A stretch of 64,000 bases of DNA, taken from positions 225,846-289,845 of the forward strand of contig CAWEZS010000012.1 of assembly GCA_963813645.1 (NCBI GenBank), read 5' to 3'. The translations under genes and the position numbers were made by a program. Each line of letters starts with the position of its first letter. The first letter of the stretch is position 1. This document shows positions 26,325-46,770 of the stretch, piece after piece. The stretch is from Terriglobia bacterium (GTDB lineage Bacteria; Acidobacteriota; Terriglobia; Terriglobales; Acidobacteriaceae). The notes beneath the pieces were generated by a model, which had not been told where the DNA came from, made no database searches, and saw only the letters and a program-made list of their open reading frames with translations.

Positions 26325-26460
26325 CGCCGGCGTCCCTTCGGAACTCAGGGCAGGCTCGCCGGGTGTCCCGAGGGCGTCCCTGTGGAGGACGGGCGTCCCG
26401 CCCGTCGAGCGATGGCTTGTGCACGACGGGCGGGACGCCCGTCCTCCATAGTTCGATGAC
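26321..26460. repeat. composite family C element (GTAGCGCCGGCGTCCC module plus GGAGGACGGGCGTCCCGCCCGTC hairpin)
   Basis: The first module aligns with 28873-28947 (opposite strand). The hairpin arms 26384-26406 / 26425-26447 match the arms at 46663-46728. Confidence 0.7.
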
Positions 26461-29147: not shown

Positions 29148-29190
29148 TGTCATGATTCTCGCAACTATCGGACGATGGGGCAAGCAGAGG

Positions 29191-29310
29191 CCACGTGGGG
29201 ACAGCCGCCCCCGGCTGTCCGGTCGAGCACTGCTCGACAGTGCTTTTTGACGGCACAAAACTTAGCGGAGCTCTGCTCCGCCGGACAGCCGAGGGCGGCT
29301 GTCCCCACGT
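29191..29310. repeat. family B element (two inverted units, CCACGTGGGGACAGCCGCC...GGCGGCTGTCCCCACGT)
   Basis: The terminal 30 nt are near-perfect inverted repeats, and each unit has a GGACAGCC/GGCTGTCC hairpin. Confidence 0.75.
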
Positions 29311-29317
29311 AGCCTGT

Positions 29318-30002: not shown

Positions 30003-30036
30003 TTGACACTACCAGTAGCGAAATCTAATCTAGAAT
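30003..30036 (+). promoter_or_regulatory. candidate nuo operon promoter TTGACA-N17-TAATCT (a TAGAAT box follows immediately)
   Basis: 30003-30008 TTGACA and 30026-30031 TAATCT. TAGAAT at 30031-30036 would need a 22-nt spacer. Confidence 0.4.
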
Positions 30037-30076
30037 GTTTACTTGGCGCTTGGCGCGAATTATATATAGCTCTCCC

Positions 30077-30472
30077 ATGCCCGACAATTACTTCGTCCGC
30101 TACCTGCCACTCCTGATCCACTTTATAGTCGCGGGAGCCCTCGCGGGCGTAATCGTCTTTCTGTCCTGGCTGATCGGGTATCGCCGCCCTACGCGGGCCA
30201 AAATGTCGCCCTACGAGTGTGGGATGACCCCCATCGGGGATGCCCGAGAGCGTTTCTCGGTCAAATTCTATATGGTGGGCATGCTGTTCATCCTGTTTGA
30301 CATTGAAGCCATCTTTCTTTATCCCTGGGCCGTGATCCTGCGCGATCTTAAGATGTTTGGTTTCTGGGAGATGCTGGTTTACATCGGCATCATGCTGGTG
30401 GGCTTTTTCTACGTATGGAAGAAAGGCGCTCTCGACTGGGGTAAACCTTCAGCCCGCCGAGGCCAGGTCTGA
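30077..30472 (+). CDS. nuoA: NADH-quinone oxidoreductase subunit A
   Basis: PYECG...FDIEAIFLYPW motif. Start set at MPDNYF. Confidence 0.9.
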   Translation: MPDNYFVRYLPLLIHFIVAGALAGVIVFLSWLIGYRRPTRAKMSPYECGMTPIGDARERFSVKFYMVGMLFILFDIEAIFLYPWAVILRDLKMFGFWEMLVYIGIMLVGFFYVWKKGALDWGKPSARRGQV

Positions 30473-30969
30473 TGCCGTTTCCACCCGCCATCACCGATCT
30501 GGAGCAACTGAAGAACCATCCAGCCGTGGCCAAGCTGTTGGCTTGGAATTCGACTGCGGTCAAGGGCGCGAAGTTCGATCGCGACGAGATGAGTATTTAC
30601 GTGGAGCGGTCGCTTATCCGTGACGCTTGTATGCTGCTCCGCGACGATGAGGATTGTCAGTTCAATTATCTTGCCGACGTCACCTGCGTGGATTGGTTTC
30701 CTTCGGAACCGCGCTTCGAGGTCGTTTACCACCTGCTGTCGATTCCCAAGAAAGAGCGCGTGCGATTGAAGGTTCGGCTTGACGGCAGCAGCCCGGCGCT
30801 GGATTCGGTGACACAGGTCTGGCCCGGTGCGAATTACTTCGAACGCGAGGTGTTTGATTTGTTTGGCGTGCGTTTTGCCGGACACCCCTACCTGCGGCGG
30901 ATTGTGATGCCGGAAGATTGGGAAGGCCATCCCTTGCGTAAAGACTATCCGGTGGAGGGCTACCGCTAG
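30472..30969 (+). CDS. nuoC: NADH-quinone oxidoreductase subunit C
   Basis: WPGANYFEREVFDLFGVRFAGHP...LRKDYP. The ATG overlaps the nuoA TGA by 1 nt. Confidence 0.95.
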   Translation: MPFPPAITDLEQLKNHPAVAKLLAWNSTAVKGAKFDRDEMSIYVERSLIRDACMLLRDDEDCQFNYLADVTCVDWFPSEPRFEVVYHLLSIPKKERVRLKVRLDGSSPALDSVTQVWPGANYFEREVFDLFGVRFAGHPYLRRIVMPEDWEGHPLRKDYPVEGYR

Positions 30970-30977
30970 GTCCCGCC

Positions 30978-32183
30978 ATGGCTCATCTTTCCCCCGCACC
31001 CTCGCTTGAACCCGGTCAGGACCGCACCATGATCCTGAACATGGGTCCACATCATCCCTCGACCCATGGCGTGCTTCGACTGCTGCTCGAGATTGACGGC
31101 GAAAATATTGTCCGCATCATGCCCGACATCGGGTTTCTGCACACTGGAATTGAGAAGACCTGCGAGGCCAAGTTCTACCAGCAAGTTGTCCCGCTGACCG
31201 ACCGTATCGACTACCTGTGCCCCCTGACCAATAATCTTTGCTACGTGCTCGCGGTTGAAAAGCTGCTGGGCCTGGAGATTCCTCCGAAAGCGCAGTGGAT
31301 GCGGGTGATGTTGAACGAGCTCACGCGCATCAATTCGCACCTGGTCTGGCTGGGGACGCATGCGCTTGATATCGGGGCAATGACCGTTTTTCTTTATTGC
31401 TTCCGCGAGCGTGAAGACATCCTGCGGCTGTTCGAGATGGTCAGCGGACAGCGCATGATGACTTCGTACTTCCGCATCGGCGGGCTGGCGCTGGAACCAC
31501 CACTGGGCTTTTTCGAACGCGTGCAGGATTTCGCGACGCGCTTTCCGTCGAAGGTCGATGAGTACGAAAATTTACTGACCGGAAATCCTATCTGGGGAAT
31601 GCGGACCAAAGGGGTGGCGCGGATCACGGCAGAAGACGCCGTCGCTCTGGGAGCCAGCGGGCCGACGTTGCGGGGCAGTGGAGTGGATTTCGATTTGCGC
31701 CGCGACATGCCCTACTCCAGCTATGAGAAATTCGAATTCAAGGTGCCGGTATCGCAGGACGGCGACGTATTTGCCCGCTACGCGTGCCGGGTGGCGGAAC
31801 TACGGGAATCCATCGCCATAGTGCAGCAGGCGCTCGATGGCATGCCGGAAGGCCCCATCAAGGCAACGGCGCCAAAGGTGATCCTGCCCGACCGCGAGAT
31901 GATGAAGACGCAAATGGAAGCGCTCATCTATCACTTCAAAATCATCACGGAAGGCTTCGCCGTGCCCGCGGGCGAGGTCTACCAGGCGGTGGAATCGCCG
32001 CGCGGCGAAATGGGATACTACGTGGTCAGCGACGGCACCGCGAAACCGTATCGGGTCCACATGCGTTCGGCTTGTCTGGCTAATCTGCAGGCGCTGCCTA
32101 CGATGTGCGAGGGCCGGCTGCTGGCGGATGTGGTGGCTGCGATCGGCAGCATTGACATTGTGCTAGGCGAAATTGACCGGTAG
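30978..32183 (+). CDS. nuoD: NADH-quinone oxidoreductase subunit D
   Basis: NMGPHHPSTHGVLRL...GFLHTGIEK...ESPRGEMGYY...DIVLGEIDR. Confidence 0.95.
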   Translation: MAHLSPAPSLEPGQDRTMILNMGPHHPSTHGVLRLLLEIDGENIVRIMPDIGFLHTGIEKTCEAKFYQQVVPLTDRIDYLCPLTNNLCYVLAVEKLLGLEIPPKAQWMRVMLNELTRINSHLVWLGTHALDIGAMTVFLYCFREREDILRLFEMVSGQRMMTSYFRIGGLALEPPLGFFERVQDFATRFPSKVDEYENLLTGNPIWGMRTKGVARITAEDAVALGASGPTLRGSGVDFDLRRDMPYSSYEKFEFKVPVSQDGDVFARYACRVAELRESIAIVQQALDGMPEGPIKATAPKVILPDREMMKTQMEALIYHFKIITEGFAVPAGEVYQAVESPRGEMGYYVVSDGTAKPYRVHMRSACLANLQALPTMCEGRLLADVVAAIGSIDIVLGEIDR

Positions 32184-32224
32184 GGATTGAGTAATTGGGG
32201 AATTTGGTAATTGAGTAATTAAAC
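32184..32224. repeat. left arm of AT-rich octad element (GTAATTGN x4)
   Basis: GGGATTGAGTAATTGGGGAATTTGGTAATTGAGTAATTAAAC. 32186-32205 pairs with 32608-32630. Confidence 0.6.
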
Positions 32225-32228
32225 ATCC

Positions 32229-32599
32229 ATGGTGATCGCGATGAAAACCCAGCCGGAGCAACTCAGGGACCGGACAAAATCGTTCGCATTGCGCATCATT
32301 CGCCTTTTTCCATCGCTTCCCTACAAGCCTGACGCACAGGTCCTGGGTAAGCAGCTGTTACGATGCGGAACCTCAGTTGCCGCTAACTACCGGGCAGTTT
32401 GTCGTGCAAGATCGAAGGCAGAATTCGTTGCCAAGATGGAATTGTGGTTGAAGAGGCAGACGAGACTATCTTGTGGTTGGAACTGTTGACCGAATCGGGG
32501 ATTATTTCCGAGGAGAAAACACGAGAGCTGCTGACGGAGGCGCGGGAGTTGACGGCGATATTCACGGCATCACAACACACGGCCAGAAGCGTAGCTTAG
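32229..32599 (+). pseudogene. four-helix-bundle protein (23S rRNA intervening-sequence protein family), split by a 1-nt frameshift near 32438
   Basis: ORF 32229-32489 gives ...LRDRTKSFALRIIRLF...QVLGKQLLRCGTSVAANYRAVCRARSKAEFVAKM. ORF 32399-32599 continues in another frame with IVVEEADETILWLELLTESGII... Together they match the family consensus. Confidence 0.7.
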
Positions 32600-32602
32600 C
32601 GC

Positions 32603-32632
32603 CTTAAAATTGCACAATTACTCAATTCTTAG
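32603..32632. repeat. right arm of AT-rich octad element, ending at the nuoE ATG
   Basis: CTTAAAATTGCACAATTACTCAATTCTTAG is immediately followed by ATG 32633. Confidence 0.6.
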
Positions 32633-33109
32633 ATGAAGTTTTCGGAACAATTCGAAACGCGCTTCGCCGAGATGCTGACGCACTATCCGACCAAGAGGTC
32701 GGTGCTCGTCCCGACGCTGCTGTATGCGCAGGACGAGGCTGGCTACCTCTCCGATGAAGTGATCGACGAGATTGCCGGTCGACTGGAACTGACATCTCTC
32801 GAAGTGCGCAACGTGATCAGCTACTACTCCATGCTGACCACCAAGCCGCGAGGCAAGTACAACGTTCAGGTCTGCACCAACATTGCCTGCATGCTGCGCG
32901 GCGGTGAAGAACTTCTGGAACATTGCGAGAAGAAACTCGGCATCGGACACAAGCAGACCACGCCCGACGGTCTTTTCTGCCTGGAAGAAGTGGAGTGCAT
33001 CGGAGGCTGTAGTTGGGCTCCGGCGGTGCAGGTGAATTACGCTTTTTATGAGAACCTGACCCCGGAGAAGATGGATAGAGTGCTGGACGAGTACAGGAAG
33101 AAGAATTGA
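32633..33109 (+). CDS. nuoE: NADH-quinone oxidoreductase subunit E
   Basis: 2Fe-2S thioredoxin-like fold: VCTNIACMLRG...ECIGGCSWAP. Confidence 0.95.
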   Translation: MKFSEQFETRFAEMLTHYPTKRSVLVPTLLYAQDEAGYLSDEVIDEIAGRLELTSLEVRNVISYYSMLTTKPRGKYNVQVCTNIACMLRGGEELLEHCEKKLGIGHKQTTPDGLFCLEEVECIGGCSWAPAVQVNYAFYENLTPEKMDRVLDEYRKKN

Positions 33110-33203
33110 GTAATTGGGGAAATTGAGTAATTGTGTAATTTGGAAGACGGAGCTGTCAGGATATTTTTCAAATTACTCAATTACTAAATTACCCAATTAC
33201 TAG
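33104..33203. repeat. AT-rich octad hairpin element between nuoE and nuoF
   Basis: GAGTAATTGGGGAAATTGAGTAATTGTGTAATTTGGAA - loop - TTCAAATTACTCAATTACTAAATTACCCAATTACTA. The arms are about 36 nt with few mismatches, and the nuoE TGA lies in the first unit. Confidence 0.8.
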
Positions 33204-33211
33204 ATGCCACC

Positions 33212-34519
33212 ATGGCTGATCTAGTTTCCCATCCCGATGAAGTAAAGGTTGTCACCCGGCGGTTTGGCCTGGGTGCGACCAATATTGATCGCTACCTGGA
33301 GCTTGACGGCTACAAGGCGGTGCAGAAGGCCTTGGGCATGGGAGCGGATGGCATCGTCAACGAGGTCAAGAACTCCGGCTTGCGCGGGCGCGGGGGCGCG
33401 GGGTTCAGCACCGGCCTGAAGTGGTCGTTCGTACCCAAGCAAGCGTCGAAGCCGAAATATATTTTGTGCAATGGCGACGAGAGCGAGCCCGGCACGTGTA
33501 AAGACCGCCTGATTTTTGAGCACGATCCGCACGCGGTGATCGAAGGCGTCATGATCGCCGGGCTGGCGGTGGGATCGAAGACCGGCTACATCTACGTTCG
33601 CGGTGAATACCGCTATCTTCTCGAAATTGTGCAGAAGGCGATTGCCGATGCTTACGCGCGTGGCTTTCTGGGCAAGAACATTTTTGGGAGCGGGCAGGAC
33701 TTCGATATTTACTGGCACGGGGGCGCGGGCGCGTACGAAGTGGGTGAAGAATCGGCCCTGATGGAATCGCTCGAAGGCAAGCGCGGCATCCCTCGCATCA
33801 AGCCTCCCTTCCCTGCGGTGGTTGGGCTGTGGGGCGGGCCGACGGTAATTAACAATGCTGAAACATTGGCCAGCGTGCCGCACATTATTCTGGGCGGGGC
33901 GGAGTGGTACGCCAAGCTGGGCCCGCCGAAAAATGGCGGGACGCGGCTGTTCTGTCTCAGCGGACACGTCAAGAAGCCCGGAGTTTACGAGCTGCCGATG
34001 GGATACAACCTTAGAAAGATGATCTTCGAGGTGGGCGGCGGAATTCCCAACGGACGCGCGCTTAAGGCAGTAGTGCCGGGCGGATCGAGTACGCCGATAT
34101 TGAAGTCCGACGAGATCGATATCGCCATGGATTTCGACAGCGTTGCCAAAACCGGATCCATGCTGGGATCGGGTGGCGTGGTCATCCTCGACGACACAAC
34201 CTGCATAGTCAAATTTGCCTTGCGAACCATGAAGTTTTACCAGCACGAGAGCTGCGGCTGGTGCATCCCATGCCGCGAAGGCACCGACTGGCTGAAGAAG
34301 ACGCTGATTCGCTTCCACTCCGGCGGCGGAGTGAAAAAAGATATCGACAACATGTACTACCTGTCGGAAAACATGCTGGGCCGGACCTTCTGTCCGCTGG
34401 GCGATGCCGCGGCCATGCCGACCATGGCATTCATCAAAAAGTTCCGGCAGGAGTTTGAAGATCATTTGGACGGCAAGCCGTGTCCGTTTGAGAAGGCGGC
34501 GGAGCCGGTGCTGGCGTAG
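33212..34519 (+). CDS. nuoF: NADH-quinone oxidoreductase subunit F
   Basis: GLRGRGGAGFSTGLKW, CNGDESEPGT, ESCGWCIPCREG. Confidence 0.95.
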   Translation: MADLVSHPDEVKVVTRRFGLGATNIDRYLELDGYKAVQKALGMGADGIVNEVKNSGLRGRGGAGFSTGLKWSFVPKQASKPKYILCNGDESEPGTCKDRLIFEHDPHAVIEGVMIAGLAVGSKTGYIYVRGEYRYLLEIVQKAIADAYARGFLGKNIFGSGQDFDIYWHGGAGAYEVGEESALMESLEGKRGIPRIKPPFPAVVGLWGGPTVINNAETLASVPHIILGGAEWYAKLGPPKNGGTRLFCLSGHVKKPGVYELPMGYNLRKMIFEVGGGIPNGRALKAVVPGGSSTPILKSDEIDIAMDFDSVAKTGSMLGSGGVVILDDTTCIVKFALRTMKFYQHESCGWCIPCREGTDWLKKTLIRFHSGGGVKKDIDNMYYLSENMLGRTFCPLGDAAAMPTMAFIKKFRQEFEDHLDGKPCPFEKAAEPVLA

Positions 34520-34525
34520 CAAATC

Positions 34526-34617
34526 GGGTAATTGGGTAATTTTGTAATTGAGTAATTTGAAAACGCACGGCGGGGGGATGATTTCAAATTACACAATTAC
34601 TAAATTTCTCAATTCCC
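34526..34617. repeat. AT-rich octad hairpin element between nuoF and nuoG
   Basis: GGGTAATTGGGTAATTTTGTAATTGAGTAATTTGAAA - loop - TTTCAAATTACACAATTACTAAATTTCTCAATTCCC. GTAATT recurs with a period of 8 nt. Confidence 0.8.
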
Positions 34618-34627
34618 AAATTTAATC

Positions 34628-37006
34628 ATGGCTGACGTAAACATCACGGTAGACGGCAAGAAGGTCACGGCTCCGGCTGGGACTCTGCTGATTGAAGCCT
34701 GCAAGACTGTGGGCATCGAAGTACCTTCGTTTTGCTACTACCCGAATCTCTCGCTGCAGGGCGCTTGCCGCATGTGCCTGGTAAAAATCGAGAAGATGCC
34801 GAAGCTGCAGACTGCGTGCACCACGGTCGTTGGCGAAGGCATGGTTGTGATTACGGACAGCGATGAAGTGCATCAGGCACGCAAGGGCATGGTGGAATTG
34901 CTGCTAGGTAATCATCCTCTTGATTGTCCGGTGTGCGATGCCGGGGGCGAGTGCGAATTGCAGGACATGACATTCTCTTACGGCGCCGCGGAGTCGAAGT
35001 ACATGGAACCCAAGAACCACAAAGAGGAGCAGCAGTGGTCTCCCGTGGTGTACTTCGACCGGCCGCGCTGCATCCTTTGTTATCGCTGCGTGCGGGTGTG
35101 CGGCGAGGGCATGGACGTTTGGGCACTGGGAGTACAGAATCGCGGCGTGGGTTCGATCATCGCACCCAATAAAGAAGACCACCTGGAGTGCGAAGAGTGC
35201 GGCATGTGCATTGACATCTGTCCGGTAGGCGCGCTGACTTCGGGGGCTTACCGTTATAAGACGCGTCCCTGGGAGATGAACCACGTCGGCACCACCTGTA
35301 CCCATTGCGCGGACGGATGCAAGACCACGCTGGGCGTGCGGCGTTCCGAAACCGGTATGGAGATTGTGCGCGGAGACAATCGCGACAAAAGCGGCATCAA
35401 CGGCGATTTCCTCTGCATCAAGGGCCGCTACGCATTTGATTTTGCCAACCGCGAGGACCGCCTGACCCAGCCGCTGATTCGTAAAGATGGACAACTGGTC
35501 CCGGCTACCTGGGAAGCGGCGTTTGAACTGATCGGAAAACGCTTCAAGGAAGCTCGCGATCAAAATGGCGGGCAGGCGATAGGGGTCGTAGGTTCAAACC
35601 GCACCACCAACGAAGAGAATTATCTCTTGCAGAAGTTCGCTCGCGTGGTTTTACAAACCAATAACATCGACCATCACCGCACAGCGGACTTCCCTGCATT
35701 TGCCGCGGCGCTTGGAGGCAAGCCAGAATCCGCCGCCAGCATGCGCGATGTGTTCAATGCGCCGGCAATTCTGCTGATTGGAAACGATCCAACGGAACAG
35801 CATCCGTTGCTAGCTTGGCAGATTCGGAATAACGTTCGACTGCACAACGCGAAACTGTATGTGGTGAATTCTGCGGACATCAAACTTCACCGGCAGGCGG
35901 CTGGGTTTTTGCGGATTCCCGCGGGTACGGAGGGGCGGTTCACCGCCTTCCTGGCGGGAGATGATTCTGCGGCGAATGCCATCACCAGCCATGTGGCCGC
36001 GGGCGGCTCGCCCGCGCAGCCCAGCCCTGGCGAGTTTCGCGACCAGCTTCGCGGCGAGCAGAACCTGGTCATCATTTTCGGCGCCGAGATTCGCGGTGGC
36101 GATATTGCTTCCCTGGTCAAGTTTGGCTCGGGCATTCCTGGAGCAAAGTTTTTGTGTCTCGCCGACTATGCCAACTCTCGGGGCGCGGCCGACATGGGCC
36201 TCTATCCCGACTTGCTGCCCGGCTATCATCCGATCGCCGACTCTGGAAAATTCCATGAGGAGTGGGGCGGAGTTCCGCAAACGACCGGATTGACCTTGCC
36301 GGAGATGGTTGAGAGCGCCGGCTCGGGAAAATTGAAAGCGCTCTACGTGGTAGGCGCCAATCCAGTGGGAAGGTTCGGCATCGATCCTTTTGTTTTTTCG
36401 CAGAGTTTCGTGGTGGTACAGGACATGTTCCTGACCGAAACTGCGGTTTTGGCCGACGTGGTTTTGCCGGCGGCCAACGCCTACGAGAAATCAGGGACGT
36501 TCACCAATACTTGCGGCGATCTGCAACTGGTGAAGAAGGCAGGAGAGGTCAGCGGCAGCAAGTCCGATTTCGAGATGATCGTACGCGTCGCGGATGCGAT
36601 GGGGACGGACATCCACAAACTGGTTCCGTTCGGCCGGGGCGAGGCCGCGGACATGGGACAATCGCGCGGGGCACAATCGGGAGAAGCTGACCGGCATGGT
36701 GTCTGGCTCGAGGCGCACGGGCTGGAGCCGAAGATGAGTCCGTTTGATCCCATGGCGATTCTCGACGAAATTCAACGGCTGGTGCCGGGATACGAAGTTT
36801 TGCGGATGAACCTGCTGGCGGGTAACGATCAGCACACGACACTGGTAGGCAGCACGACCGGAGCTTCGCAGGATCCAGCGCTGATTGCTCCCGCGAATGA
36901 CAACCTGTTTAGCTCGGGTACGTTGGGGCGCTATTCGCGGACGCTGAACTCGGTGATGGAGAACCACAACCGACAGCCGGTGGAATCTGAAGTTGCAGCG
37001 GACTGA
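34628..37006 (+). CDS. nuoG: NADH-quinone oxidoreductase subunit G
   Basis: 2Fe-2S and 4Fe-4S cysteine motifs (CRMCLV, HPLDCPVCDAGGEC, CILCYRCVRVC, CEECGMCIDICP) plus a molybdopterin-like domain. Confidence 0.95.
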   Translation: MADVNITVDGKKVTAPAGTLLIEACKTVGIEVPSFCYYPNLSLQGACRMCLVKIEKMPKLQTACTTVVGEGMVVITDSDEVHQARKGMVELLLGNHPLDCPVCDAGGECELQDMTFSYGAAESKYMEPKNHKEEQQWSPVVYFDRPRCILCYRCVRVCGEGMDVWALGVQNRGVGSIIAPNKEDHLECEECGMCIDICPVGALTSGAYRYKTRPWEMNHVGTTCTHCADGCKTTLGVRRSETGMEIVRGDNRDKSGINGDFLCIKGRYAFDFANREDRLTQPLIRKDGQLVPATWEAAFELIGKRFKEARDQNGGQAIGVVGSNRTTNEENYLLQKFARVVLQTNNIDHHRTADFPAFAAALGGKPESAASMRDVFNAPAILLIGNDPTEQHPLLAWQIRNNVRLHNAKLYVVNSADIKLHRQAAGFLRIPAGTEGRFTAFLAGDDSAANAITSHVAAGGSPAQPSPGEFRDQLRGEQNLVIIFGAEIRGGDIASLVKFGSGIPGAKFLCLADYANSRGAADMGLYPDLLPGYHPIADSGKFHEEWGGVPQTTGLTLPEMVESAGSGKLKALYVVGANPVGRFGIDPFVFSQSFVVVQDMFLTETAVLADVVLPAANAYEKSGTFTNTCGDLQLVKKAGEVSGSKSDFEMIVRVADAMGTDIHKLVPFGRGEAADMGQSRGAQSGEADRHGVWLEAHGLEPKMSPFDPMAILDEIQRLVPGYEVLRMNLLAGNDQHTTLVGSTTGASQDPALIAPANDNLFSSGTLGRYSRTLNSVMENHNRQPVESEVAAD

Positions 37007-37045
37007 AAACTCTTTCTACACACTTTTATAGGGCAGGACGTATAC

Positions 37046-37070
37046 GCTGAGGGCGGGACGCCGGCGCTAC
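37046..37070. repeat. minimal family C remnant (minus strand GTAGCGCCGGCGTCCCGCCCTCAGC)
   Basis: Joins the two ends seen in the 28873-28947 copy. Lies in the nuoG-nuoH spacer. Confidence 0.45.
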
Positions 37071-37082
37071 CTGGGATAACGT

Positions 37083-38123
37083 TTGAATATCACCACCTTC
37101 ATTATCGTTTCTTTCATCAAGACTGTGCTGGCACTGTTTGTGTTGCTAACGGCGGTGGCGTATACAGTCTGGCTAGAGCGCAAAGTTGTCGGCCACATGC
37201 AGAACCGCTGGGGACCCACTCGAGTGGGTCCGTTTGGCTTGCTGCAGCCGCTGGCGGACGGAATTAAGTTCCTGTTCAAGGAAGACCTGACGCCGCCGCA
37301 CGTGTACCGGCCGCTGTATATCGCGGCGCCGATCATTGCTGTCATGTGCGCCCTGACTTCAATCGCAGTGATTCCGGTGGGCAACTGGATCACGATCGGC
37401 AGCCTGCACATTCCGCTGCAGATCACGGATGTCAACATCGGATTGCTGATCATTCTGGGCGTTACTTCGCTCGGAGTGTACGGCGTCGCGCTGGCGGGTT
37501 GGTCATCGAACAGCAAGTATTCCCTGCTGGGTGGGCTGCGGGCCAGCGCGCAGATGATCAGTTACGAGATTTCGCTCGGGCTTTCCCTGGTGGGCGTGCT
37601 GATGCTTACCGGCAGCTTCAGCCTGCGAGATATCGTGGACGCGCAGAGCGGGACGTTTTGGTGGATTGTTCCGCGCTGGAACATTTTCTACGGCGGGCAG
37701 TTCATCGCTTTCTTTATTTATCTGATGTCGGCGTATGCGGAAACCAACCGCATCCCGTTCGATCTGCCAGAGGCGGAGACCGAACTGGTCGCGGGATATC
37801 ACACCGAGTACAGCGCCATGAAGTTTGCCATGTTTTTCATGGCCGAATACGCCAACATGATTACTGTCGCGGCCGTGGCTTCGCTCCTGTTTTTAGGCGG
37901 CTGGCATGGCCCGGTGTTTGGGCCACCGATCTTGCAGGCGCTTCTGCCAGTCTTTTGGTTTGCGTTAAGGATCTTTGGCTTTCTGTTTCTATATATATGG
38001 GTGCGCGGCACCTTGCCCCGGTTTCGTTATGATCAGCTCATGGCATTCGGGTGGAAATTTCTTTTGCCGCTGGCGATCGCAAATCTGGTGGTGACGGCGC
38101 TGGTGGTGGCGTTGCGGGCTTGA
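37083..38123 (+). CDS. nuoH: NADH-quinone oxidoreductase subunit H
   Basis: ERKVVGHMQNRWGPTRVGPFGLLQPLADG...AETNRIPFDLPEAETELVAGYHTEYS. TTG start. Confidence 0.95.
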   Translation: MNITTFIIVSFIKTVLALFVLLTAVAYTVWLERKVVGHMQNRWGPTRVGPFGLLQPLADGIKFLFKEDLTPPHVYRPLYIAAPIIAVMCALTSIAVIPVGNWITIGSLHIPLQITDVNIGLLIILGVTSLGVYGVALAGWSSNSKYSLLGGLRASAQMISYEISLGLSLVGVLMLTGSFSLRDIVDAQSGTFWWIVPRWNIFYGGQFIAFFIYLMSAYAETNRIPFDLPEAETELVAGYHTEYSAMKFAMFFMAEYANMITVAAVASLLFLGGWHGPVFGPPILQALLPVFWFALRIFGFLFLYIWVRGTLPRFRYDQLMAFGWKFLLPLAIANLVVTALVVALRA

Positions 38124-38126
38124 TAA

Positions 38127-38162
38127 TCAGTTTCTAGTTTCCTGTTTCTGGTTTCCAGTTTC
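38127..38162. repeat. five tandem heptads NNGTTTC abutting the nuoJ ATG
   Basis: CAGTTTC TAGTTTC CTGTTTC TGGTTTC CAGTTTC ATG. Confidence 0.7.
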
Positions 38163-38681
38163 ATGACTCATCTGATCGTATTTCTGTTCTTCGGGGCGTT
38201 GTGCGTGGCGGGGGCGGTAAACCTGCTGGTGCAACGGCATCCCATCAACAGCGCGCTCTCGTTGGTGGTGGTGATGGCGTCGCTGGCGGTGGAATATCTT
38301 CTGCTGGGAGCGGAGTTCGTCGCGGCAGTGCAAGTCATCGTGTACGCAGGCGCGGTCATGGTGTTGTTTGTGTTTGTCATCATGCTGTTGAACGCGGGAG
38401 AGGAAGAGCGCACTAAAGGAAGTCGCGTAGCGCTCCTGTTTGGAGTCCCCGGAGTGCTGGTGGGCAGCGTGCTGGTGGGTTGGGTGCTGATCGAACGCAC
38501 TGGCAGCCAGACGGTATCCGCCGGGGCTCTACCCGGCGCGCCGCGGACCATTGGCTGGCTGCTGTTTCACAATTTCCTTCTCCCGTTTGAAGTGACTTCG
38601 ATTCTGGTGCTGATCGCCATTATGGGCGCCGTCGTTCTGGCCAGCCATCCCGACACGGACTCAGGAAAGAAGGAGGGCTGA
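38163..38681 (+). CDS. nuoJ: NADH-quinone oxidoreductase subunit J
   Basis: 172 aa, with the hydrophobic pattern and VQVIVYAGAVMVLFVFVIMLL typical of NuoJ. Confidence 0.9.
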   Translation: MTHLIVFLFFGALCVAGAVNLLVQRHPINSALSLVVVMASLAVEYLLLGAEFVAAVQVIVYAGAVMVLFVFVIMLLNAGEEERTKGSRVALLFGVPGVLVGSVLVGWVLIERTGSQTVSAGALPGAPRTIGWLLFHNFLLPFEVTSILVLIAIMGAVVLASHPDTDSGKKEG

Positions 38682-38983
38682 TGGTGCCGATCTCGTACTA
38701 CCTCATTCTCAGCGGGATTCTGTTTGCCTGCGGCGTGACCGGTTTTCTGATCAAGCGCAACATCATCAGCATTTTCATGTCGATTGAACTGATGTTGAAT
38801 GGCGTGAATCTTTCATTCGTCGCATTTGCCGCGCAGTGGCATGCCTTGAGCGGACAAATATTCGTATTCTTCGTGATGGTGGTGGCGGCGGCCGAGGCGG
38901 CGGTGGGACTGGCGATCATCATCGCCGTTTACCGCACCCGTGAAACTCTGAACGTCGACCAGGTGGATTTGCTCAAACTATGA
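38681..38983 (+). CDS. nuoK: NADH-quinone oxidoreductase subunit K
   Basis: 100 aa: MSIELMLNGVNL...AAAEAAVGLAI. 1-nt overlap with the nuoJ stop. Confidence 0.95.
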   Translation: MVPISYYLILSGILFACGVTGFLIKRNIISIFMSIELMLNGVNLSFVAFAAQWHALSGQIFVFFVMVVAAAEAAVGLAIIIAVYRTRETLNVDQVDLLKL

Positions 38984-41034
38984 CGCCCGATTTGCATCTG
39001 TGGATCATCCCAATGCTGCCGCTGGTGGGCGCCGCGATCAACGGTTTCCTGGGCAAAAAGTTTTCCCGGCAAACCGTCGCCGCCGTAGCCCTGTTGTTCA
39101 GCGGCATGGCGTTTGCGATGGTGCTATTTGTAGCGTCCCGCTTCTCCTCGCTGAGCACGCCACACATCGAGTTTCTCGCCACCTGGATCCGCGCCGGAAA
39201 GTTTCAGGTCGACTTCTCCTTTTACCTCGACCAGCTGTCTTTGGTGATGCTGCTGGTCGTGACGGGTGTCGGATTCCTTATTCACATCTATTCCGTCGGT
39301 TATATGTGGGAGGAAGGCGGGTTCTATCGCTTCTTCGCCTACCTGAATCTGTTCATGTTCTTCATGCTGACGCTGGTGCTCGCGAGCAACTACCTGCTGA
39401 TGTTCATCGGATGGGAAGGCGTGGGCCTGGCTTCATATCTTCTGATTGGGTTCTGGTTCACCAAGGACTCGGCAGCATCGGCCGGAAAGAAAGCGTTCAT
39501 CGTCAATCGGGTCGGCGATTTCGGATTTCTGATTGCACTATTTCTGCTGATAAAGCATTTCGGCTCGCTGAATTTCGATCAGGTTTTCCAGGGCGTTATT
39601 CCGATGAGCCCCGAGAACGGCGGAGCCGGGCTACTCACCACCGTGGGCCTGCTGCTGATGGTGGGAGCTGCGGGCAAGTCGGCGCAGATTCCGCTCTATG
39701 TGTGGCTGCCCGACGCCATGGAAGGCCCGACTCCGGTCTCCGCGCTGATTCACGCCGCGACCATGGTGACCGCTGGCGTGTATATGGTTTCCCGGTCGCA
39801 CGTAATTTTCGAGCGGGCGCCAATGGCCTTGACGGTTGTGGCCATCATCGGGACGCTGACTGCCTTGTTCGCCGCCACTATCGGCATCACGCAGACGGAC
39901 ATTAAGAAGGTACTGGCATACTCCACGATTTCGCAGCTTGGGTATATGTTCATGGCCTGCGGGGTGGGGGCTTTTTCAGCAGGTATTTTCCATCTGATGA
40001 CGCACGCCTTCTTCAAGGGGTTGCTGTTTCTGGCCGCCGGGTCGGTGATTCACGCGGTGAGCGGCGAACAGGACATGCGTCAGATGGGCGGGTTGCGCAC
40101 CAAGATTCCTTGGACCTTCTGGACCATGACGATCGCTACGTTCGCTATCGCAGGGATTCCACCGTTTGCCGGATTCTTCAGCAAGGATGAAATTTTGTGG
40201 CGGGCTTACCAGGCTAGTTGGGTCTATTGGTTTATCGGATTGTTCACGGCATTTCTCACTTCCTTTTATATGTTCCGGTTGTGGTTCATGACCTTTTTCG
40301 GGGAATACCGTGGGACGGCGGAAGCACATGATGAAGCCGGACACGATTTGGCGCATCACGACCTGCAGGCGGGGGCGCCCGCACCACATGGGCACAGACA
40401 TGGGCATAGCGGGATTCATGAGAGTCCGCGGGTGATGGTGATTCCGCTCGTCGTGCTGGCGTTCCTCTCTCTTACAGGCGGGTGGATTGGGGTTCCGGGA
40501 TCGCTCGGCGGGAGCAATCGCTTCGACAAATTTCTCGGGCCGGTATTCCACTCGACGATCGCAGCCAGTACTGAAGGCCATGGGTTGGCGGCGACGCCAG
40601 AGAGAGAAGCGGAAGGCCCCGAGCCGCACACTGGTCATGTGACCGAGCTGATCTTCACCGGCATTTCAGTGTTTGCGGGACTACTCGGATTTCTGCTGGC
40701 GTGGCAGCTTTACTATCGCAACCCGCAGTTGCCGCAGCAGATCGCGGCGGGGTTGGGAGGTCTCTACGACGCGGTGGTCCACAAGTACTACATCGATGAG
40801 TTGTACGCGACTTTGTTCGTCAAGCCGCTCATCGCCGGCTCTGCCCTGATTTTGTGGCACGGCATAGACCAGGATGTGATCGATGCCTCGGTGGACAACG
40901 GCGCGCATGGGGCAAATGAGGTTTCTGATTCGGTTCGTCACATGCAATCCGGCAACCTGCGCTCGTACGCTGGATGGGTGGCAGCGGGAGCCGCCGCGGT
41001 GATCGCTTACATGGTCTGGATGGGAACACGATGA
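38980..41034 (+). CDS. nuoL: NADH-quinone oxidoreductase subunit L
   Basis: GWEGVGLASYLLIGFW, SALIHAATMVTAGVY. ATGA overlap with nuoK. Confidence 0.95.
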   Translation: MTPDLHLWIIPMLPLVGAAINGFLGKKFSRQTVAAVALLFSGMAFAMVLFVASRFSSLSTPHIEFLATWIRAGKFQVDFSFYLDQLSLVMLLVVTGVGFLIHIYSVGYMWEEGGFYRFFAYLNLFMFFMLTLVLASNYLLMFIGWEGVGLASYLLIGFWFTKDSAASAGKKAFIVNRVGDFGFLIALFLLIKHFGSLNFDQVFQGVIPMSPENGGAGLLTTVGLLLMVGAAGKSAQIPLYVWLPDAMEGPTPVSALIHAATMVTAGVYMVSRSHVIFERAPMALTVVAIIGTLTALFAATIGITQTDIKKVLAYSTISQLGYMFMACGVGAFSAGIFHLMTHAFFKGLLFLAAGSVIHAVSGEQDMRQMGGLRTKIPWTFWTMTIATFAIAGIPPFAGFFSKDEILWRAYQASWVYWFIGLFTAFLTSFYMFRLWFMTFFGEYRGTAEAHDEAGHDLAHHDLQAGAPAPHGHRHGHSGIHESPRVMVIPLVVLAFLSLTGGWIGVPGSLGGSNRFDKFLGPVFHSTIAASTEGHGLAATPEREAEGPEPHTGHVTELIFTGISVFAGLLGFLLAWQLYYRNPQLPQQIAAGLGGLYDAVVHKYYIDELYATLFVKPLIAGSALILWHGIDQDVIDASVDNGAHGANEVSDSVRHMQSGNLRSYAGWVAAGAAAVIAYMVWMGTR

Positions 41035-42548
41035 ACGCGGATAATTGGAGCCCGTTTATTCTGACGCTGGTGACCTTCATCCCGCTGGCGGGAGCGTTGC
41101 TGTTGTTGTCGTTGCCGCGGCGTGATCGCGATATCCGGGTATTTTCCCTGGTGGTTACGCTGTTTACGTTTGTCCTGTCACTGCATTTGCCGGTCCACTT
41201 CCATCGGGCCCAGACCGGGTTTCAATATGAACTCGATCGCGCATGGATTCCGATACCCAACATTCATTACCACATGGGCGTGGACGGAATATCCATGTGG
41301 CTGGTGGTACTTACCACTTTTCTCACCCCACTGTGCGTGCTGATCTCCTGGAAATCGATTCATGAGCGGGTAAAGGAATTCTTCATCATCTTGCTGGTGC
41401 TGGAGACGGCGCTGATCGGCGTCTTCGTGGCGCTCGATCTGTTCATGTTCTATTTCTTTTGGGAAGCCACCCTGATTCCGATGGCATTGCTGATTGGAAT
41501 GTACGGGCATGGCCGAAAGGTTTATGCAGCCGTCAAGTTCTTCATGTACACCATGATCGCGTCGGTGTTCATGCTGGCGGCGATTCTTTGGCTCTACGCC
41601 AAGGTCGGAACCTTTGATTTTGTCACCATACAGAACGCCATCCGCAGCGGCCAGGTGGAGAATTTTGCCAGCGCGGCACAGTGGCTTTTCCTGGGATTCT
41701 TCATCGCGTTTGCGGTCAAAGTTCCGCTCTTTCCTTTTCACACCTGGTTGCCCGACGCCCACGTAGAGGCGCCCACCGCGGGGTCCGTATTGCTGGCCGG
41801 GGTGTTGCTGAAGATGGGGACGTACGGAATGTTGCGTTTCAACCTCGGGCTGTTCCCCGACCAGGCCCGCGCCAACGCCTGGTGGGTCATGATTCTGGCG
41901 CTGATCGGCATTATTTATGGCGCGCTGGTGGCGCTGGTACAGCCCAACATGAAGAAGCTGATCGCCTACTCCTCGATCAGCCACCTGGGCTTTGTGGTGT
42001 TGGGAATTTTCAGCTTCACACAGGTTGGCTTGGACGGCGCGACGTTCGTGATGCTGGCGCACGGCGTATCGACTGGGGCTTTGTTCATGCTGGCGGGCAT
42101 CCTTTACGAGCGCCGCCACACCTACGACATTTCGGAATTCGGCGGGCTCGCGAGCTCGATGCCGGTGTACGCAAGTTTCTTCCTGTTCGTGGTGCTGGCC
42201 TCGGTCGGGTTGCCCCTGCTGAACGGCTTTATCGGAGAGTTCCTGGTGCTGAGTGGAGCGTTTCAGGATCGTGCGGTTTACGGAGTTCTGGGCGCGACCG
42301 GCATCATCTGGAGTGCGGGTTACCTACTATGGATGTACCAGCGAGTTTTCTACGGAAAGATCACGCATCCCGTGAACGAAACTCTGCCTGATCTGGATAC
42401 GCGTGAGCACATCGCTCTTCTGCCCGCAGCCGCCGCCGCGTTGGTGATGGGCGTGGCGCCCCTGCTGTGGTTGAACGCCATCGATCCCTCCGTTCAAACC
42501 GCGTTGGCGCCCTTCGCGCAATTGGCCAGCAAGGTGGTTGGCCAGTGA
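41031..42548 (+). CDS. nuoM: NADH-quinone oxidoreductase subunit M
   Basis: FFWEATLIPM, HTWLPDAHVEAPTAGSVLLAGVLLKMG. ATGA overlap with nuoL. Confidence 0.95.
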   Translation: MNADNWSPFILTLVTFIPLAGALLLLSLPRRDRDIRVFSLVVTLFTFVLSLHLPVHFHRAQTGFQYELDRAWIPIPNIHYHMGVDGISMWLVVLTTFLTPLCVLISWKSIHERVKEFFIILLVLETALIGVFVALDLFMFYFFWEATLIPMALLIGMYGHGRKVYAAVKFFMYTMIASVFMLAAILWLYAKVGTFDFVTIQNAIRSGQVENFASAAQWLFLGFFIAFAVKVPLFPFHTWLPDAHVEAPTAGSVLLAGVLLKMGTYGMLRFNLGLFPDQARANAWWVMILALIGIIYGALVALVQPNMKKLIAYSSISHLGFVVLGIFSFTQVGLDGATFVMLAHGVSTGALFMLAGILYERRHTYDISEFGGLASSMPVYASFFLFVVLASVGLPLLNGFIGEFLVLSGAFQDRAVYGVLGATGIIWSAGYLLWMYQRVFYGKITHPVNETLPDLDTREHIALLPAAAAALVMGVAPLLWLNAIDPSVQTALAPFAQLASKVVGQ

Positions 42549-44008
42549 GTGCCGCCGGAGTGAGCCAGACCATACCTCAGAGCGTGGAGTACGTACGCAT
42601 TCTGCCGGAAATCATCCTGTCGTTGTTTGGCATGGCGATCATGGTGCTCGATCCCCTGGTAGACGAGCGTAGCAGCCAGAAGCTGCTAGGTTTCATCGCC
42701 CTGATCGGCTCCGTGGCAGCGATCGCGGCAACGCTTTATCAGTCGCAGTTCCCCGGCCTGGGATTCTGGGGCGTGATCAAAGTGGATGCGTTCAGCACCT
42801 TCTTCCACATTTTGATTACTGCGATCACTGCGGTAGTAATCCTCAGCTCTTTCGAGTACATGCAGGCACAGCAGATCCGGGCGGGAGAATATTACGGGCT
42901 GATTCTTTTCGGCGCGGTCGGCATGTGCCTGATGTCTTCAGCGGTCGAACTGGTGCTGGTCTTCATCGCGCTGGAGATTTCTTCGATTTCAACTTACGTG
43001 CTGACCGGATTCCGCAGGCGTGCGGCCATCAGCAGTGAAGCGTCGTTGAAATATTTCCTGCTGGGGTCTTTTGCTACGGCTTTTTTCCTTTACGGTGTGG
43101 CGCTGACATTTGGCGCGACCGGATCTACCAGCATTTCACTTATCGCCCTGGCACTTCGATCGAATCCGATTCCCGTGCTGGCCTATGCCGGGATCGCGTT
43201 CATGTTCGTGGGCCTGGGTTTCAAAGTGGCAGCCGCGCCTTTTCACATCTGGACACCCGACGTGTACGAAGGCGCTCCCGCGCCCGTCGTCGGCTTCATG
43301 TCAACCGCTCCCAAGGCAGCGGCATTCGCAGTCCTGCTGCGCGTAATGTTTGAAGCCAATGCGCCCGGGCGGCTTTGGTTGATCTGGGTCGCGGCCGCTC
43401 TTTCCATGACCCTGGGGAACGTGGGCGCACTAGTGCAGCAGAACGTCAAACGGCTGTTGGCATATTCTTCCATCGCGCATGCCGGATATCTTCTCGTAGC
43501 CTTTGCCGCGTTGCCTGCCAATGGCGTTCCCGCAGCTATGTTCTACACCGCGTCTTACGCAGCCATGAATGTCGGCGCGTTCGCCGTGGTCAGCCACATC
43601 GCGGGCGCTGGAGAGCGTTACGTCACCCTCGATGACTACGCGGGACTCGGACGGCGATCACCGCTTCTCGCCGCCACGCTAACGATTTTTTTGTTATCGC
43701 TAATCGGAATTCCGATGACCGGCGGCTTCTTCGCCAAGTTCTACGTGTTCAGCGCAGCGCTGCAAGCTAACCTGGTTGGACTTACCATCATCGGCGTACT
43801 CAACAGCGCCGTGGGCGCGTACTACTACCTGCGAATCATCGTGGTGATGTATATGCGTGAAGCGCGCGAAGAATTGCCGGCGATTCCGGTTACACCTGCT
43901 CTGGGGGCGGCGCTGGCCATCAGCGTGGCCGCCACTCTTTATCTTGGCGTGCTTCCTGGTCGAGTGTTGCAATACGCGTCACGGTCAGCGGCGGAGCTTT
44001 TACATTAG
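42545..44008 (+). CDS. nuoN: NADH-quinone oxidoreductase subunit N
   Basis: ALEISSISTYVL, PFHIWTPDVYEGAP. GTG 42545 overlaps the nuoM stop (GTGA). Confidence 0.9.
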   Translation: MSAAGVSQTIPQSVEYVRILPEIILSLFGMAIMVLDPLVDERSSQKLLGFIALIGSVAAIAATLYQSQFPGLGFWGVIKVDAFSTFFHILITAITAVVILSSFEYMQAQQIRAGEYYGLILFGAVGMCLMSSAVELVLVFIALEISSISTYVLTGFRRRAAISSEASLKYFLLGSFATAFFLYGVALTFGATGSTSISLIALALRSNPIPVLAYAGIAFMFVGLGFKVAAAPFHIWTPDVYEGAPAPVVGFMSTAPKAAAFAVLLRVMFEANAPGRLWLIWVAAALSMTLGNVGALVQQNVKRLLAYSSIAHAGYLLVAFAALPANGVPAAMFYTASYAAMNVGAFAVVSHIAGAGERYVTLDDYAGLGRRSPLLAATLTIFLLSLIGIPMTGGFFAKFYVFSAALQANLVGLTIIGVLNSAVGAYYYLRIIVVMYMREAREELPAIPVTPALGAALAISVAATLYLGVLPGRVLQYASRSAAELLH

Positions 44009-45662: not shown

Positions 45663-45696
45663 CAGATGGGACCTTGCTTCTGCATTATGGCATCCG

Positions 45697-45834
45697 CCAC
45701 GAACCACGTGGGGACAGCCGCCCTCGGCTGTCCGGCGGAGCGAAGCTCCGCTTGTCTTTGAGGGCGGCAAGAACCTGTCGAGCTTCGCTCGACTGGACAG
45801 CCGAGGGCGGCTGTCCCCACGTGGTTCGTGGTGG
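45697..45834. repeat. family B element (two complete inverted units)
   Basis: CCACGAACCACGTGGGGACAGCCGCCCTCGGCTGTCCGG... / ...CTGGACAGCCGAGGGCGGCTGTCCCCACGTGGTTCGTGGTGG. Confidence 0.8.
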
Positions 45835-46614: not shown

Positions 46615-46662
46615 GAGTCGTCCTTGCTTACGGTTTTGTTAGACGAATTATAAAGTGTTTAA

Positions 46663-46728
46663 GTGGAGGACGGGCGTCCCGCCCGTCATACACAGGCCAT
46701 CGCCGGACGGGCGGGACGCCCGTCCTCC
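46663..46728. repeat. family C hairpin (GGAGGACGGGCGTCCCGCCCGTC - 17 nt - GACGGGCGGGACGCCCGTCCTCC)
   Basis: Perfect 23-nt inverted arms in a divergent promoter region. Confidence 0.75.
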
Positions 46729-46770
46729 GCTCGGTATAACATCTTCAGATCATGTAACGGAGGGACAGCT

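Follow-up and report, generated by a model that had tools for sequence, protein, structure and literature searches.

The spacer between nuoE and nuoF in this Terriglobia genome raises the question of whether the long AT-rich hairpin that fills it is a working part of the nuo operon or an insert that the operon tolerates. The window analysed is the whole stretch of 64 kb. It belongs to a MAG assigned to Terriglobia (Acidobacteriota) by its nearest relatives, and the 5.0-Mb genome, in 33 contigs, was surveyed as well. nuoE was assigned to 32633-33109 (Pfam 2Fe-2S_thioredx, PF01257), and nuoF starts at 33212 (Pfam Complex1_51K, SLBB, NADH_4Fe-4S; PF01512). An AT-rich hairpin between the two genes had been proposed in a first reading of the DNA (the sequence-only reading), and it is present as described, folding over 33105-33205. 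The comparison with shuffled controls that had been suggested there was carried out. Folded as RNA, 33095-33215 forms 38 pairs in helices of 3+10+4+8+13 with an MFE of -37.2 kcal/mol. For 200 dinucleotide shuffles the mean was -20.2 ± 3.1 kcal/mol (z = -5.40), and none of them (0/200) was equally stable. The parts of the locus are the following.

33105..33147, + strand: left arm of the hairpin, with GTAATTNN-type octad units; its terminal motif AATTGAGTAATTG holds the nuoE stop codon (fold, motif scan, sequence)
33107..33109, + strand: nuoE stop codon TGA (ORF 32633-33109; Pfam 2Fe-2S_thioredx; nuoE 3' ends of relatives compared)
33148..33163, + strand: apical loop, 16 nt, relatively GC-rich (fold)
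33164..33205, + strand: right arm of the hairpin, with NNCAATTAC units (sequence, fold)
33212..33214, + strand: nuoF start codon ATG, without an SD-like motif upstream (Pfam)

In the stem, 33105-33147 is paired with 33164-33205, and the mismatches are single, recur every 8-9 nt and fall on the variable positions of the 8-nt GTAATTNN units. A stem of about 36 bp and a loop of about 24 nt had been claimed. The long stem was confirmed, with 38 imperfect bp, but the loop measures only about 16 nt, because the stem continues into the stretch regarded as loop. The distance to the nuoF ATG is 8 bases when counted from the last repeat unit, which agrees with the earlier count, and 6 when counted from the last paired base. 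An earlier start of nuoF is impossible because of an in-frame TAA at 33185-33187.

The nuoE TGA had been placed in the first unit and is indeed found there, within AATTGAGTAATTG. That the element itself supplies this codon was corroborated by comparing the nuoE 3' ends of relatives, in which the native last two to three codons plus the stop are replaced by the element terminus. The gene ends with ...KKN-TGA in the window, L001, and L009, with ...KKD-TGA in L016, and with ...KKRIE-TAA in L002; the terminus, ATTGAGTAA, thus supplies the stop in two frames among relatives. As read directly from the sequence, TTGAGTAATTGA holds stop codons in all three frames, and this property is in actual use, as L002 stops in the other frame (TAA) of the same motif. 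The absence of a Shine-Dalgarno sequence before nuoF was correctly noticed, but it is not special to this gene. SD-like motifs precede only about 29% of the genes in the genome, and nuo genes without them occur both with and without an adjoining hairpin. Because such motifs are rare genome-wide, their absence here is uninformative.

Neither a promoter nor an intrinsic terminator was predicted at the three nuo hairpins, including 33104-33211, and it is for this reason that the element is taken to be transcribed together with nuo. The stem is AT-rich and is followed by AGAUGCCACC without a U-tract, so that it does not have the make-up of an intrinsic terminator. Short motifs repeated at a constant spacing could serve as iterated sites of a protein-binding array at the DNA level, and hairpins can pause RNA polymerase, as a terminator or attenuator between nuoE and nuoF would. 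Both ideas are highly improbable in view of the missing U-tract, the fact that none of the three nuo hairpins was called as a terminator, a period of 7-8 bp that does not keep phase with the DNA helix, and units that differ completely between orthologous spacers. Rfam searches of the whole 64-kb window gave 0 matches at the gathering score, which also speaks against them.

The nuoE-nuoF hairpin is not the only one of its kind in the window. The motif GTAATTGNGTAATTG, with up to two mismatches, occurs 17 times where 0.15 are expected, and all 17 matches are located in three consecutive spacers, nuoD-E, nuoE-F, and nuoF-G. A related family is found elsewhere in the window.

32183..32632, + strand: full cassette in the nuoD-nuoE spacer; left arm 32183-32221, PF05635 gene 32229-32599, right arm about 32600-32632
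34521..34623, + strand: gene-less sister hairpin in the nuoF-nuoG spacer, built of GTAATT units, with a near-identical orthologue in L012
15666..15761, no strand assigned: hairpin from a related family of heptads, with the unit GCAATTR

In the nuoD-E spacer, the arms lie 380 nt apart and enclose a gene of the PF05635 family (IVP, '23S rRNA intervening sequence protein'). The gene is split into two frames, since one G is missing from a GGG run at about 32438 in comparison with the intact orthologue of L002; the loss may be genuine, or it may stem from an assembly error in the homopolymer. In the 16-nt loop of the nuoE-nuoF hairpin, no remnant of an IVP gene is detectable. The hairpin between nuoE and nuoF is likely to be a non-autonomous member, lacking the gene, of a family of palindromic cassettes whose full members carry IVP in the loop. 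The design of this family is defined by arms of 4-5 tandem units of 7-8 nt and a PF05635 four-helix-bundle gene in the loop.

To count the motif genome-wide and to record its position relative to genes had also been proposed. This search revealed 22 AATT-period-8 arms, corresponding to about 12 GTAATTNN elements, compared to 1 arm in shuffled sequence, and the elements are dispersed over many operons. Besides the three nuo junctions, copies are located at rplN>rplX, rplR>rpsE, hsp20>clpB, hscB>hscA, and ybaB>recR, in the gap separating two permease genes, and upstream of a gene for an HU-like protein. The view that the element separates or organises the N-module genes is not supported by this distribution, as the same family is present in ribosomal-protein, chaperone, recR, and other operons. 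The termini ATTGAGTAATTG...CAATTACTCAAT are common to the 12 GTAATTNN copies and are shared by bare hairpins and IVP cassettes alike. No target-site duplication was evident by inspection of the flanks of the 12 copies, and no clean pair of empty and filled sites was available for comparison.

In total, 294 tandem arrays of period 7 or 8 were detected in the genome, 271 with 7-nt and 23 with 8-nt units, while shuffled sequences yielded 2. They fall into about ten unit families, and at least 61 can be recognised as paired inverted arms. About 80% of the arrays are intergenic; according to rough gene calls, 19% of the genome is non-coding. The junctions are co-directional, convergent, and divergent at background proportions, and the arrays typically start at the upstream stop codon. 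A preference of AT-rich arms for tight operon junctions was not significant (p = 0.09). Array length is narrowly distributed: 244 of the 294 consist of 4-5 units, with a steep fall above 6. Six PF05635 genes are present, each between inverted tandem-unit arms (6/6), and each with another unit family (TTAGCTN, GAGAACY, GCAATTR, GTTTCAN, GTCAGCN, and GTAATTNN). All six families recur as bare arrays in the same genome, and gene-less hairpins outnumber gene-bearing cassettes by about 20 to 1.

To follow the fate of the element at a single locus, 80 Terriglobia nuo loci with NuoF proteins 85-99% identical were compared. By length, the nuoD-E, E-F, and F-G spacers form three groups, of 0-30, 60-165, and 430-610 nt. 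The E-F spacer consists of an inverted tandem-unit hairpin in 70 of the 80 loci and is short in ten; in some relatives, nuoE and nuoF overlap or abut. Depending on the lineage, the E-F unit is GTAATTNN, CAGATTK, GTCATTGA, GCTGATT, CAGAAGT, TTTGTAA, or still others, and remnants of 21-28 nt with two units left are seen in L013 and L015. The turnover is already apparent at 95-99% NuoF identity. At this level, the D-E spacer may hold a GTAATT-arm IVP cassette, an unrelated hairpin of the CACGAAG type, the same unit flipped, or just 12 nt, and the F-G spacer a heptad hairpin of TTGGTCG units, a REP-like palindrome rich in GC, or GTAATT units, either as a hairpin or as the arms of an IVP cassette. 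The element family is thus gained, lost, and replaced between close relatives, and it fills the junctions exactly from stop to start. The earlier suggestion of a translation or stability module is not supported by these data, since the nuo spacers of close relatives are either empty or occupied by hairpins of other kinds, by palindromes resembling REP, or by IVP cassettes.

ORFs in the gene-sized nuo spacers match PF05635 in 30 of 37 cases, and these 30 all share the strand of the operon and are enclosed by AT-rich arms; five others represent an unrelated DinB_2 insertion without arms. Gene-bearing copies shorten by internal deletion. In the D-E spacer of L011 (228 nt), which was verified as such a decay intermediate, both arms and the first 125 nt or so of the IVP gene are kept and about 240 nt are lost. 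An IVP gene was found in the nuoE-nuoF spacer in none of the 80 loci, and the loops of bare hairpins contained no convincing IVP remnants. The nuoE-nuoF copy could have originated by decay in place or could have arrived as a bare hairpin. The type of the E-F unit matches the arms of the nuo cassettes of its own genome weakly (0.134 versus 0.108; a value as high as the observed one arose in 42 of 2000 permutations).

A maximum-likelihood tree of the 30 IVPs from nuo spacers splits into two clades with 98/98 support, and these match the arm type, TTTGTAA heptads in one and GTAATT/GYGATY octads in the other. Each clade contains D-E and F-G subclades; two changes suffice to explain the position label, and a value as low was obtained in 0 of 500 shuffles. 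Because the tree splits by arm type, gene and arms are seen to be inherited together, each lineage having colonised more than one spacer. Inside one clade, the arms can drift in concert, from GTAATT to GYGATY.

The association of arrays and IVP genes extends beyond nuo. Arrays were counted in samples of 27-400 kb from 14 other genomes of the order and in the complete Terriglobia genome of the window, here G000.

Six genomes without a PF05635 match (five genera): 4 arrays in 888 kb, 4.5/Mb, which is noise level
Eight genomes with IVP genes: 72 arrays in 1243 kb, 58/Mb
G036, with ten IVP genes: 22 arrays in 97 kb, 228/Mb
G000: 294 arrays in 5015 kb, 59/Mb

The number of IVP genes and the array density are correlated (Spearman rho 0.82, p = 0.0002, n = 15 genomes, with kinship ignored). 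For reverse transcriptase (PF00078) and Y1 transposase (PF01797) genes, the corresponding values in the same 15 genomes were rho -0.06 and 0.00. G003 has 140 arrays/Mb with neither gene, and G003, G026, G028, and G038 are all array-rich without a reverse transcriptase gene. Two candidates for a mobiliser were rejected on these grounds. Avd, the accessory protein of diversity-generating retroelements (DGRs), is a small four-helix bundle homologous to IVP that acts on nucleic acid in concert with another protein, an enzyme. By analogy a reverse transcriptase could have been expected, but the arrays are independent of it and a template/variable repeat pair, as in DGRs, is not present. REP/BIME sequences with their RAYT (Y1) transposases are likewise abundant, intergenic, imperfect palindromes located just past stop codons; unlike them, the arrays are built of tandem units and their density shows no relation to Y1 genes.

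IVP genes outside the nuo operon have comparable flanks. In 24 genomes of the order, 29 IVP loci were compared with controls: 62% showed a flank complementarity of at least 16/20 compared to 2% in the control, and a clear 7/8-nt array was present in the flank of 69% compared to 11%. The same arrangement was encountered around plasmid-borne IVP genes, with GTCAGGA arm units in Nostoc punctiforme, GGAGATA in Picosynechococcus (cas10>IVP>cmr3), GCAGAAG in Stanieria, GGTGACA in Anabaena 90 (cas6>IVP>cas4), and AAAAGCT arrays in Pseudanabaena. In a plasmid of Calothrix the unit is TTAGCTG, which is that of the cassette on contig C19 of the Terriglobia genome, and the two IVPs are 55% identical. Finally, Azospirillum lipoferum p2 harbors a classical intervening sequence (IVS) inside 23S rRNA, whose arms are inverted heptads, CAGAGGA/CGGAGGA. 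Given their occurrence across the order, on plasmids, and in the Azospirillum 23S IVS, inverted tandem-unit arms are general to IVP cassettes, true rRNA IVSs included.

These observations also bear on the possibility that the repeat was generated locally, a palindromic seed growing by polymerase slippage and intrastrand template switching without transposition or a protein partner. Tandem units with variable positions would be expected from such a process, as would the drift of units at one site seen inside one IVP clade and the two units still left in the remnants of L013 and L015; over-representation of heptamers in several bacteria has been attributed to slippage (PMC4692102). Local growth does not readily account for conserved termini and units at about 12 dispersed loci, for the sharing of a unit family and related IVPs between Acidobacteriota and Cyanobacteriota (C19 compared with Calothrix and Pseudanabaena), for an arm length that is capped at 4-5 units instead of being geometrically distributed, or for the virtual absence of arrays from IVP-less genomes of similar GC content. 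It is considered improbable as an explanation of the nuoE-nuoF hairpin.

A more serious alternative, although still an unlikely one, is that the hairpin is a selected RNA module of the nuo operon, an RNase III or stability site or a translational-coupling bridge that tunes nuoE, nuoF, and nuoG. Occupancy of the E-F spacer in 70 of 80 relatives could also mean benefit, and the stems join stop and start almost exactly. Of 139 nuo spacers of hairpin size, 88% have the stop codon inside the stem or not more than 3 nt from it and 94% have the start codon not more than 12 nt from it; stop and start are thus drawn together by the stem. In the same spacers, the fold of the sense strand is slightly more stable than that of the antisense strand (-39.0 versus -36.7 kcal/mol), by 2.3 kcal/mol on average and in 90 of 139 cases, and it contains more G.U pairs (417 versus 315). 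However, the sense strand shows no avoidance of A.C mismatches (87 versus 73). Covariation among 13 orthologous E-F hairpins was based on few informative pairs in an alignment of ambiguous register, but a few compensatory changes from G-C to U-A were seen. Taken together, these values may hint at some RNA-sense-specific selection on the nuo hairpins. Stability or translational-coupling roles were proposed for the short tandemly repeated repetitive (STRR) hairpins found between operon genes of cyanobacteria (PMC2670836). What argues against a dedicated module is the presence of the same family in many unrelated operons, the unrelated elements or empty junctions at 95-99% NuoF identity, including overlaps of nuoE and nuoF, and the IVP-less genomes, which have nuo operons yet essentially no arrays.

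The stem is a reasonable candidate for an RNase III substrate because it has the architecture of rRNA IVSs, the stem of which RNase III cuts, and because an rnc gene is present in the genome (G000:C19:222048-222755). In Coxiella, the IVS stem is cut by RNase III in its middle (PMC4990558), and co-transcribed Correia hairpins of Neisseria bind the enzyme and are cleaved or protected (PMC2649163). In the nuo transcript, the 38-bp imperfect duplex might be cut in the same way as in rRNA IVSs, or it might be melted by the ribosome terminating on nuoE, with subsequent re-initiation on nuoF; in either case, the effect on nuoF expression would be near neutral. The element is probably selfish, persisting or spreading as an insert that would depend somehow on IVP. 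It could be tolerated inside essential operons by virtue of the three-frame stops at its terminus and of the stem joining the upstream stop with the downstream start. A tolerated passenger, rather than a dedicated regulator of nuo or of the N-module, is the most likely role of the nuoE-nuoF hairpin.

STRR heptamer repeats have been known since 1990 and 23S rRNA IVSs with S23p/IVP genes since about 1990-95, and for neither do we know of an accepted function or mobility mechanism. The IVSs, for example in helix 45 of Coxiella burnetii and in Leptospira, consist of terminal inverted repeats forming a long stem and of a PF05635 gene (S23p/IVP ORF), and have been described in rRNA only (PMC4990558). 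This is exactly how the sister copy at 32183-32632 is built, the nuoE-nuoF copy shares the stable terminal-repeat stem of 38 bp, and the Azospirillum IVS shares the tandem-unit arms, which are heptads there. The nuoE-nuoF copy differs in its location between protein-coding genes and not in helix 25 or 45 of 23S rRNA, in its 16-nt loop without a PF05635 ORF, and in its 8-nt units. STRR sequences are tandem 7-nt units that form hairpins in intercistronic spacers such as hupS-hupL (PMC2670836), and heptamer arrays, some of them inverted, occur in Xanthomonas and Nostoc (PMC4692102). Like STRR, the nuoE-nuoF copy is intergenic, hairpin-forming, and located within an operon. Unlike STRR, it has a period of 8 and is from Acidobacteriota and not cyanobacteria, yet 271 arrays of the genome have period 7. 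Correia repeat enclosed elements (CREE) of Neisseria and other MITEs are small, dispersed, co-transcribed inverted repeats as well (PMC2649163, PMC2229807). With MITEs the element shares terminal inverted repeats, ATTGAGTAATTG...CAATTACTCAAT, common to bare and gene-bearing members, and a presence/absence polymorphism between close relatives. It is not related to CREE or MITEs in sequence, its arms are tandem-unit arms, no target duplication is visible by inspection, and the candidate partner is a four-helix-bundle gene. The ORF of the IVP cassettes is PF05635 only, and a transposase-encoding partner as in MITEs was not found.

In the literature, the coverage of which was incomplete, no published link of STRR-type arms to IVP genes and no report of such cassettes in mRNA operons was found. 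The data suggest that STRR and rRNA IVSs are two faces of one element family that has also colonised mRNA operons. As a single locus, nuoE-nuoF is of modest interest, but it offers a good entry to this class of elements. For annotation, the family accounts for many 'orphan' AT-rich spacers, for repeat-donated stop codons, and for small four-helix-bundle genes in conserved operons.

These results raise the hypothesis that IVP itself binds or propagates the tandem-unit arms. If this were true, rRNA intervening sequences, cyanobacterial STRR, and operon-internal hairpins would be united. We know of no catalytic activity of IVP and of no transposition mechanism for IVP-type elements. The closest structure, 2RLD, is an uncharacterised four-helix bundle with five chains in the entry, and Avd, a member of the same Pfam family, is a pentamer. 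A multimeric four-helix-bundle IVP would read arms of 4-5 units and thereby create or propagate cassettes as well as the more numerous bare hairpins. That IVP is the trans-acting factor of an unrecognised class of mobile or self-maintaining elements without transposase or reverse transcriptase is a tentative proposal, possible but clearly less secure than the assignment of the nuoE-nuoF hairpin to the cassette family. Over longer evolutionary distances, IVP and arms covary weakly: for 38 IVP loci outside nuo, protein identity and sharing of arm 6-mers gave a Spearman coefficient of 0.10, and 6 of 1000 Mantel permutations were as high.

The nuo operon of the window (30035-44008) appears to read nuoA-C-D-E-F-G-H-J-K-L and onwards; this order was inferred from open reading frames, the assignments of nuoA, nuoC, nuoH and nuoJ being putative. 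The ORF order also suggests that there is space for neither nuoB nor nuoI at their usual places. Further palindromes and arrays were detected within the window:

26380-26451, 46662-46731, 29188-29315 and 45694-45834: GC-rich REP-like palindromes of two families (GGAGGACGGGCGTCCCGCCCGTC... and CCACGTGGGGACAGCCGCCC...)
38127-38162: NNGTTTC heptad array (tctagtttcctgtttctggtttccagtttcATG), abutting the nuoJ ATG

The array before nuoJ, likewise within the nuo operon, consists of one arm alone and has a different unit family. A GC-rich palindrome related to the REP-like elements fills the nuoF-nuoG spacer in L001, L004, L010, L013, L015 and other loci of related Terriglobia, and several unrelated hairpin families therefore compete for the same junctions. 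In five further relatives (L040, L065, L067, L069, L070), this spacer is about 590-610 nt long and harbors a DinB_2-family gene of ~190 aa without repeat arms.

At the nuoD-nuoE junction, the unit GTGTCCTY/RAGGACAC is found among relatives in both possible arm configurations: it forms the left arm in one of two groups (L005, L007, L017, L018, L020, L022 versus L001, L003, L004, L012) and the right arm in the other. The arrangement gives the impression of a hairpin flipped inside out. In the window, the same spacer contains a gene for the PF05635 protein (IVP), which is split by a frameshift at 32438, one G being absent from a GGG run by comparison with the intact orthologue of the relative L002. 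This may be a homopolymer assembly error instead of a pseudogene.

IVP cassettes are also contained in CRISPR-cas operons on cyanobacterial plasmids (L081, L088, L084):

cas6>IVP>cas4: Pseudanabaena galeata and Anabaena sp. 90, plasmid
cas10>IVP>cmr3: Picosynechococcus PCC 7003, plasmid

The Pseudanabaena IVP gene is flanked by long AAAAGCT/AAAAGCC arrays (>15 units) in direct, not inverted, orientation. Very long arrays were present in a sample (L225-L229) of G017, another genome of the order, where GCGCAGA/GCACAGA/GCGCAAA heptads form arrays of >25 units, in contrast to the 4-5 units to which arrays are limited in G000, the genome holding the window. G017 has only one IVP gene.

Three reverse-transcriptase matches were obtained in G000:

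C5:90984-91670
C32:178989-179675
C31:105109-105795

Their 440-aa open frames are identical and their scores near-identical. All three probably represent a single group II intron or retroelement present in several copies; they have no relation to the tandem-unit arrays.
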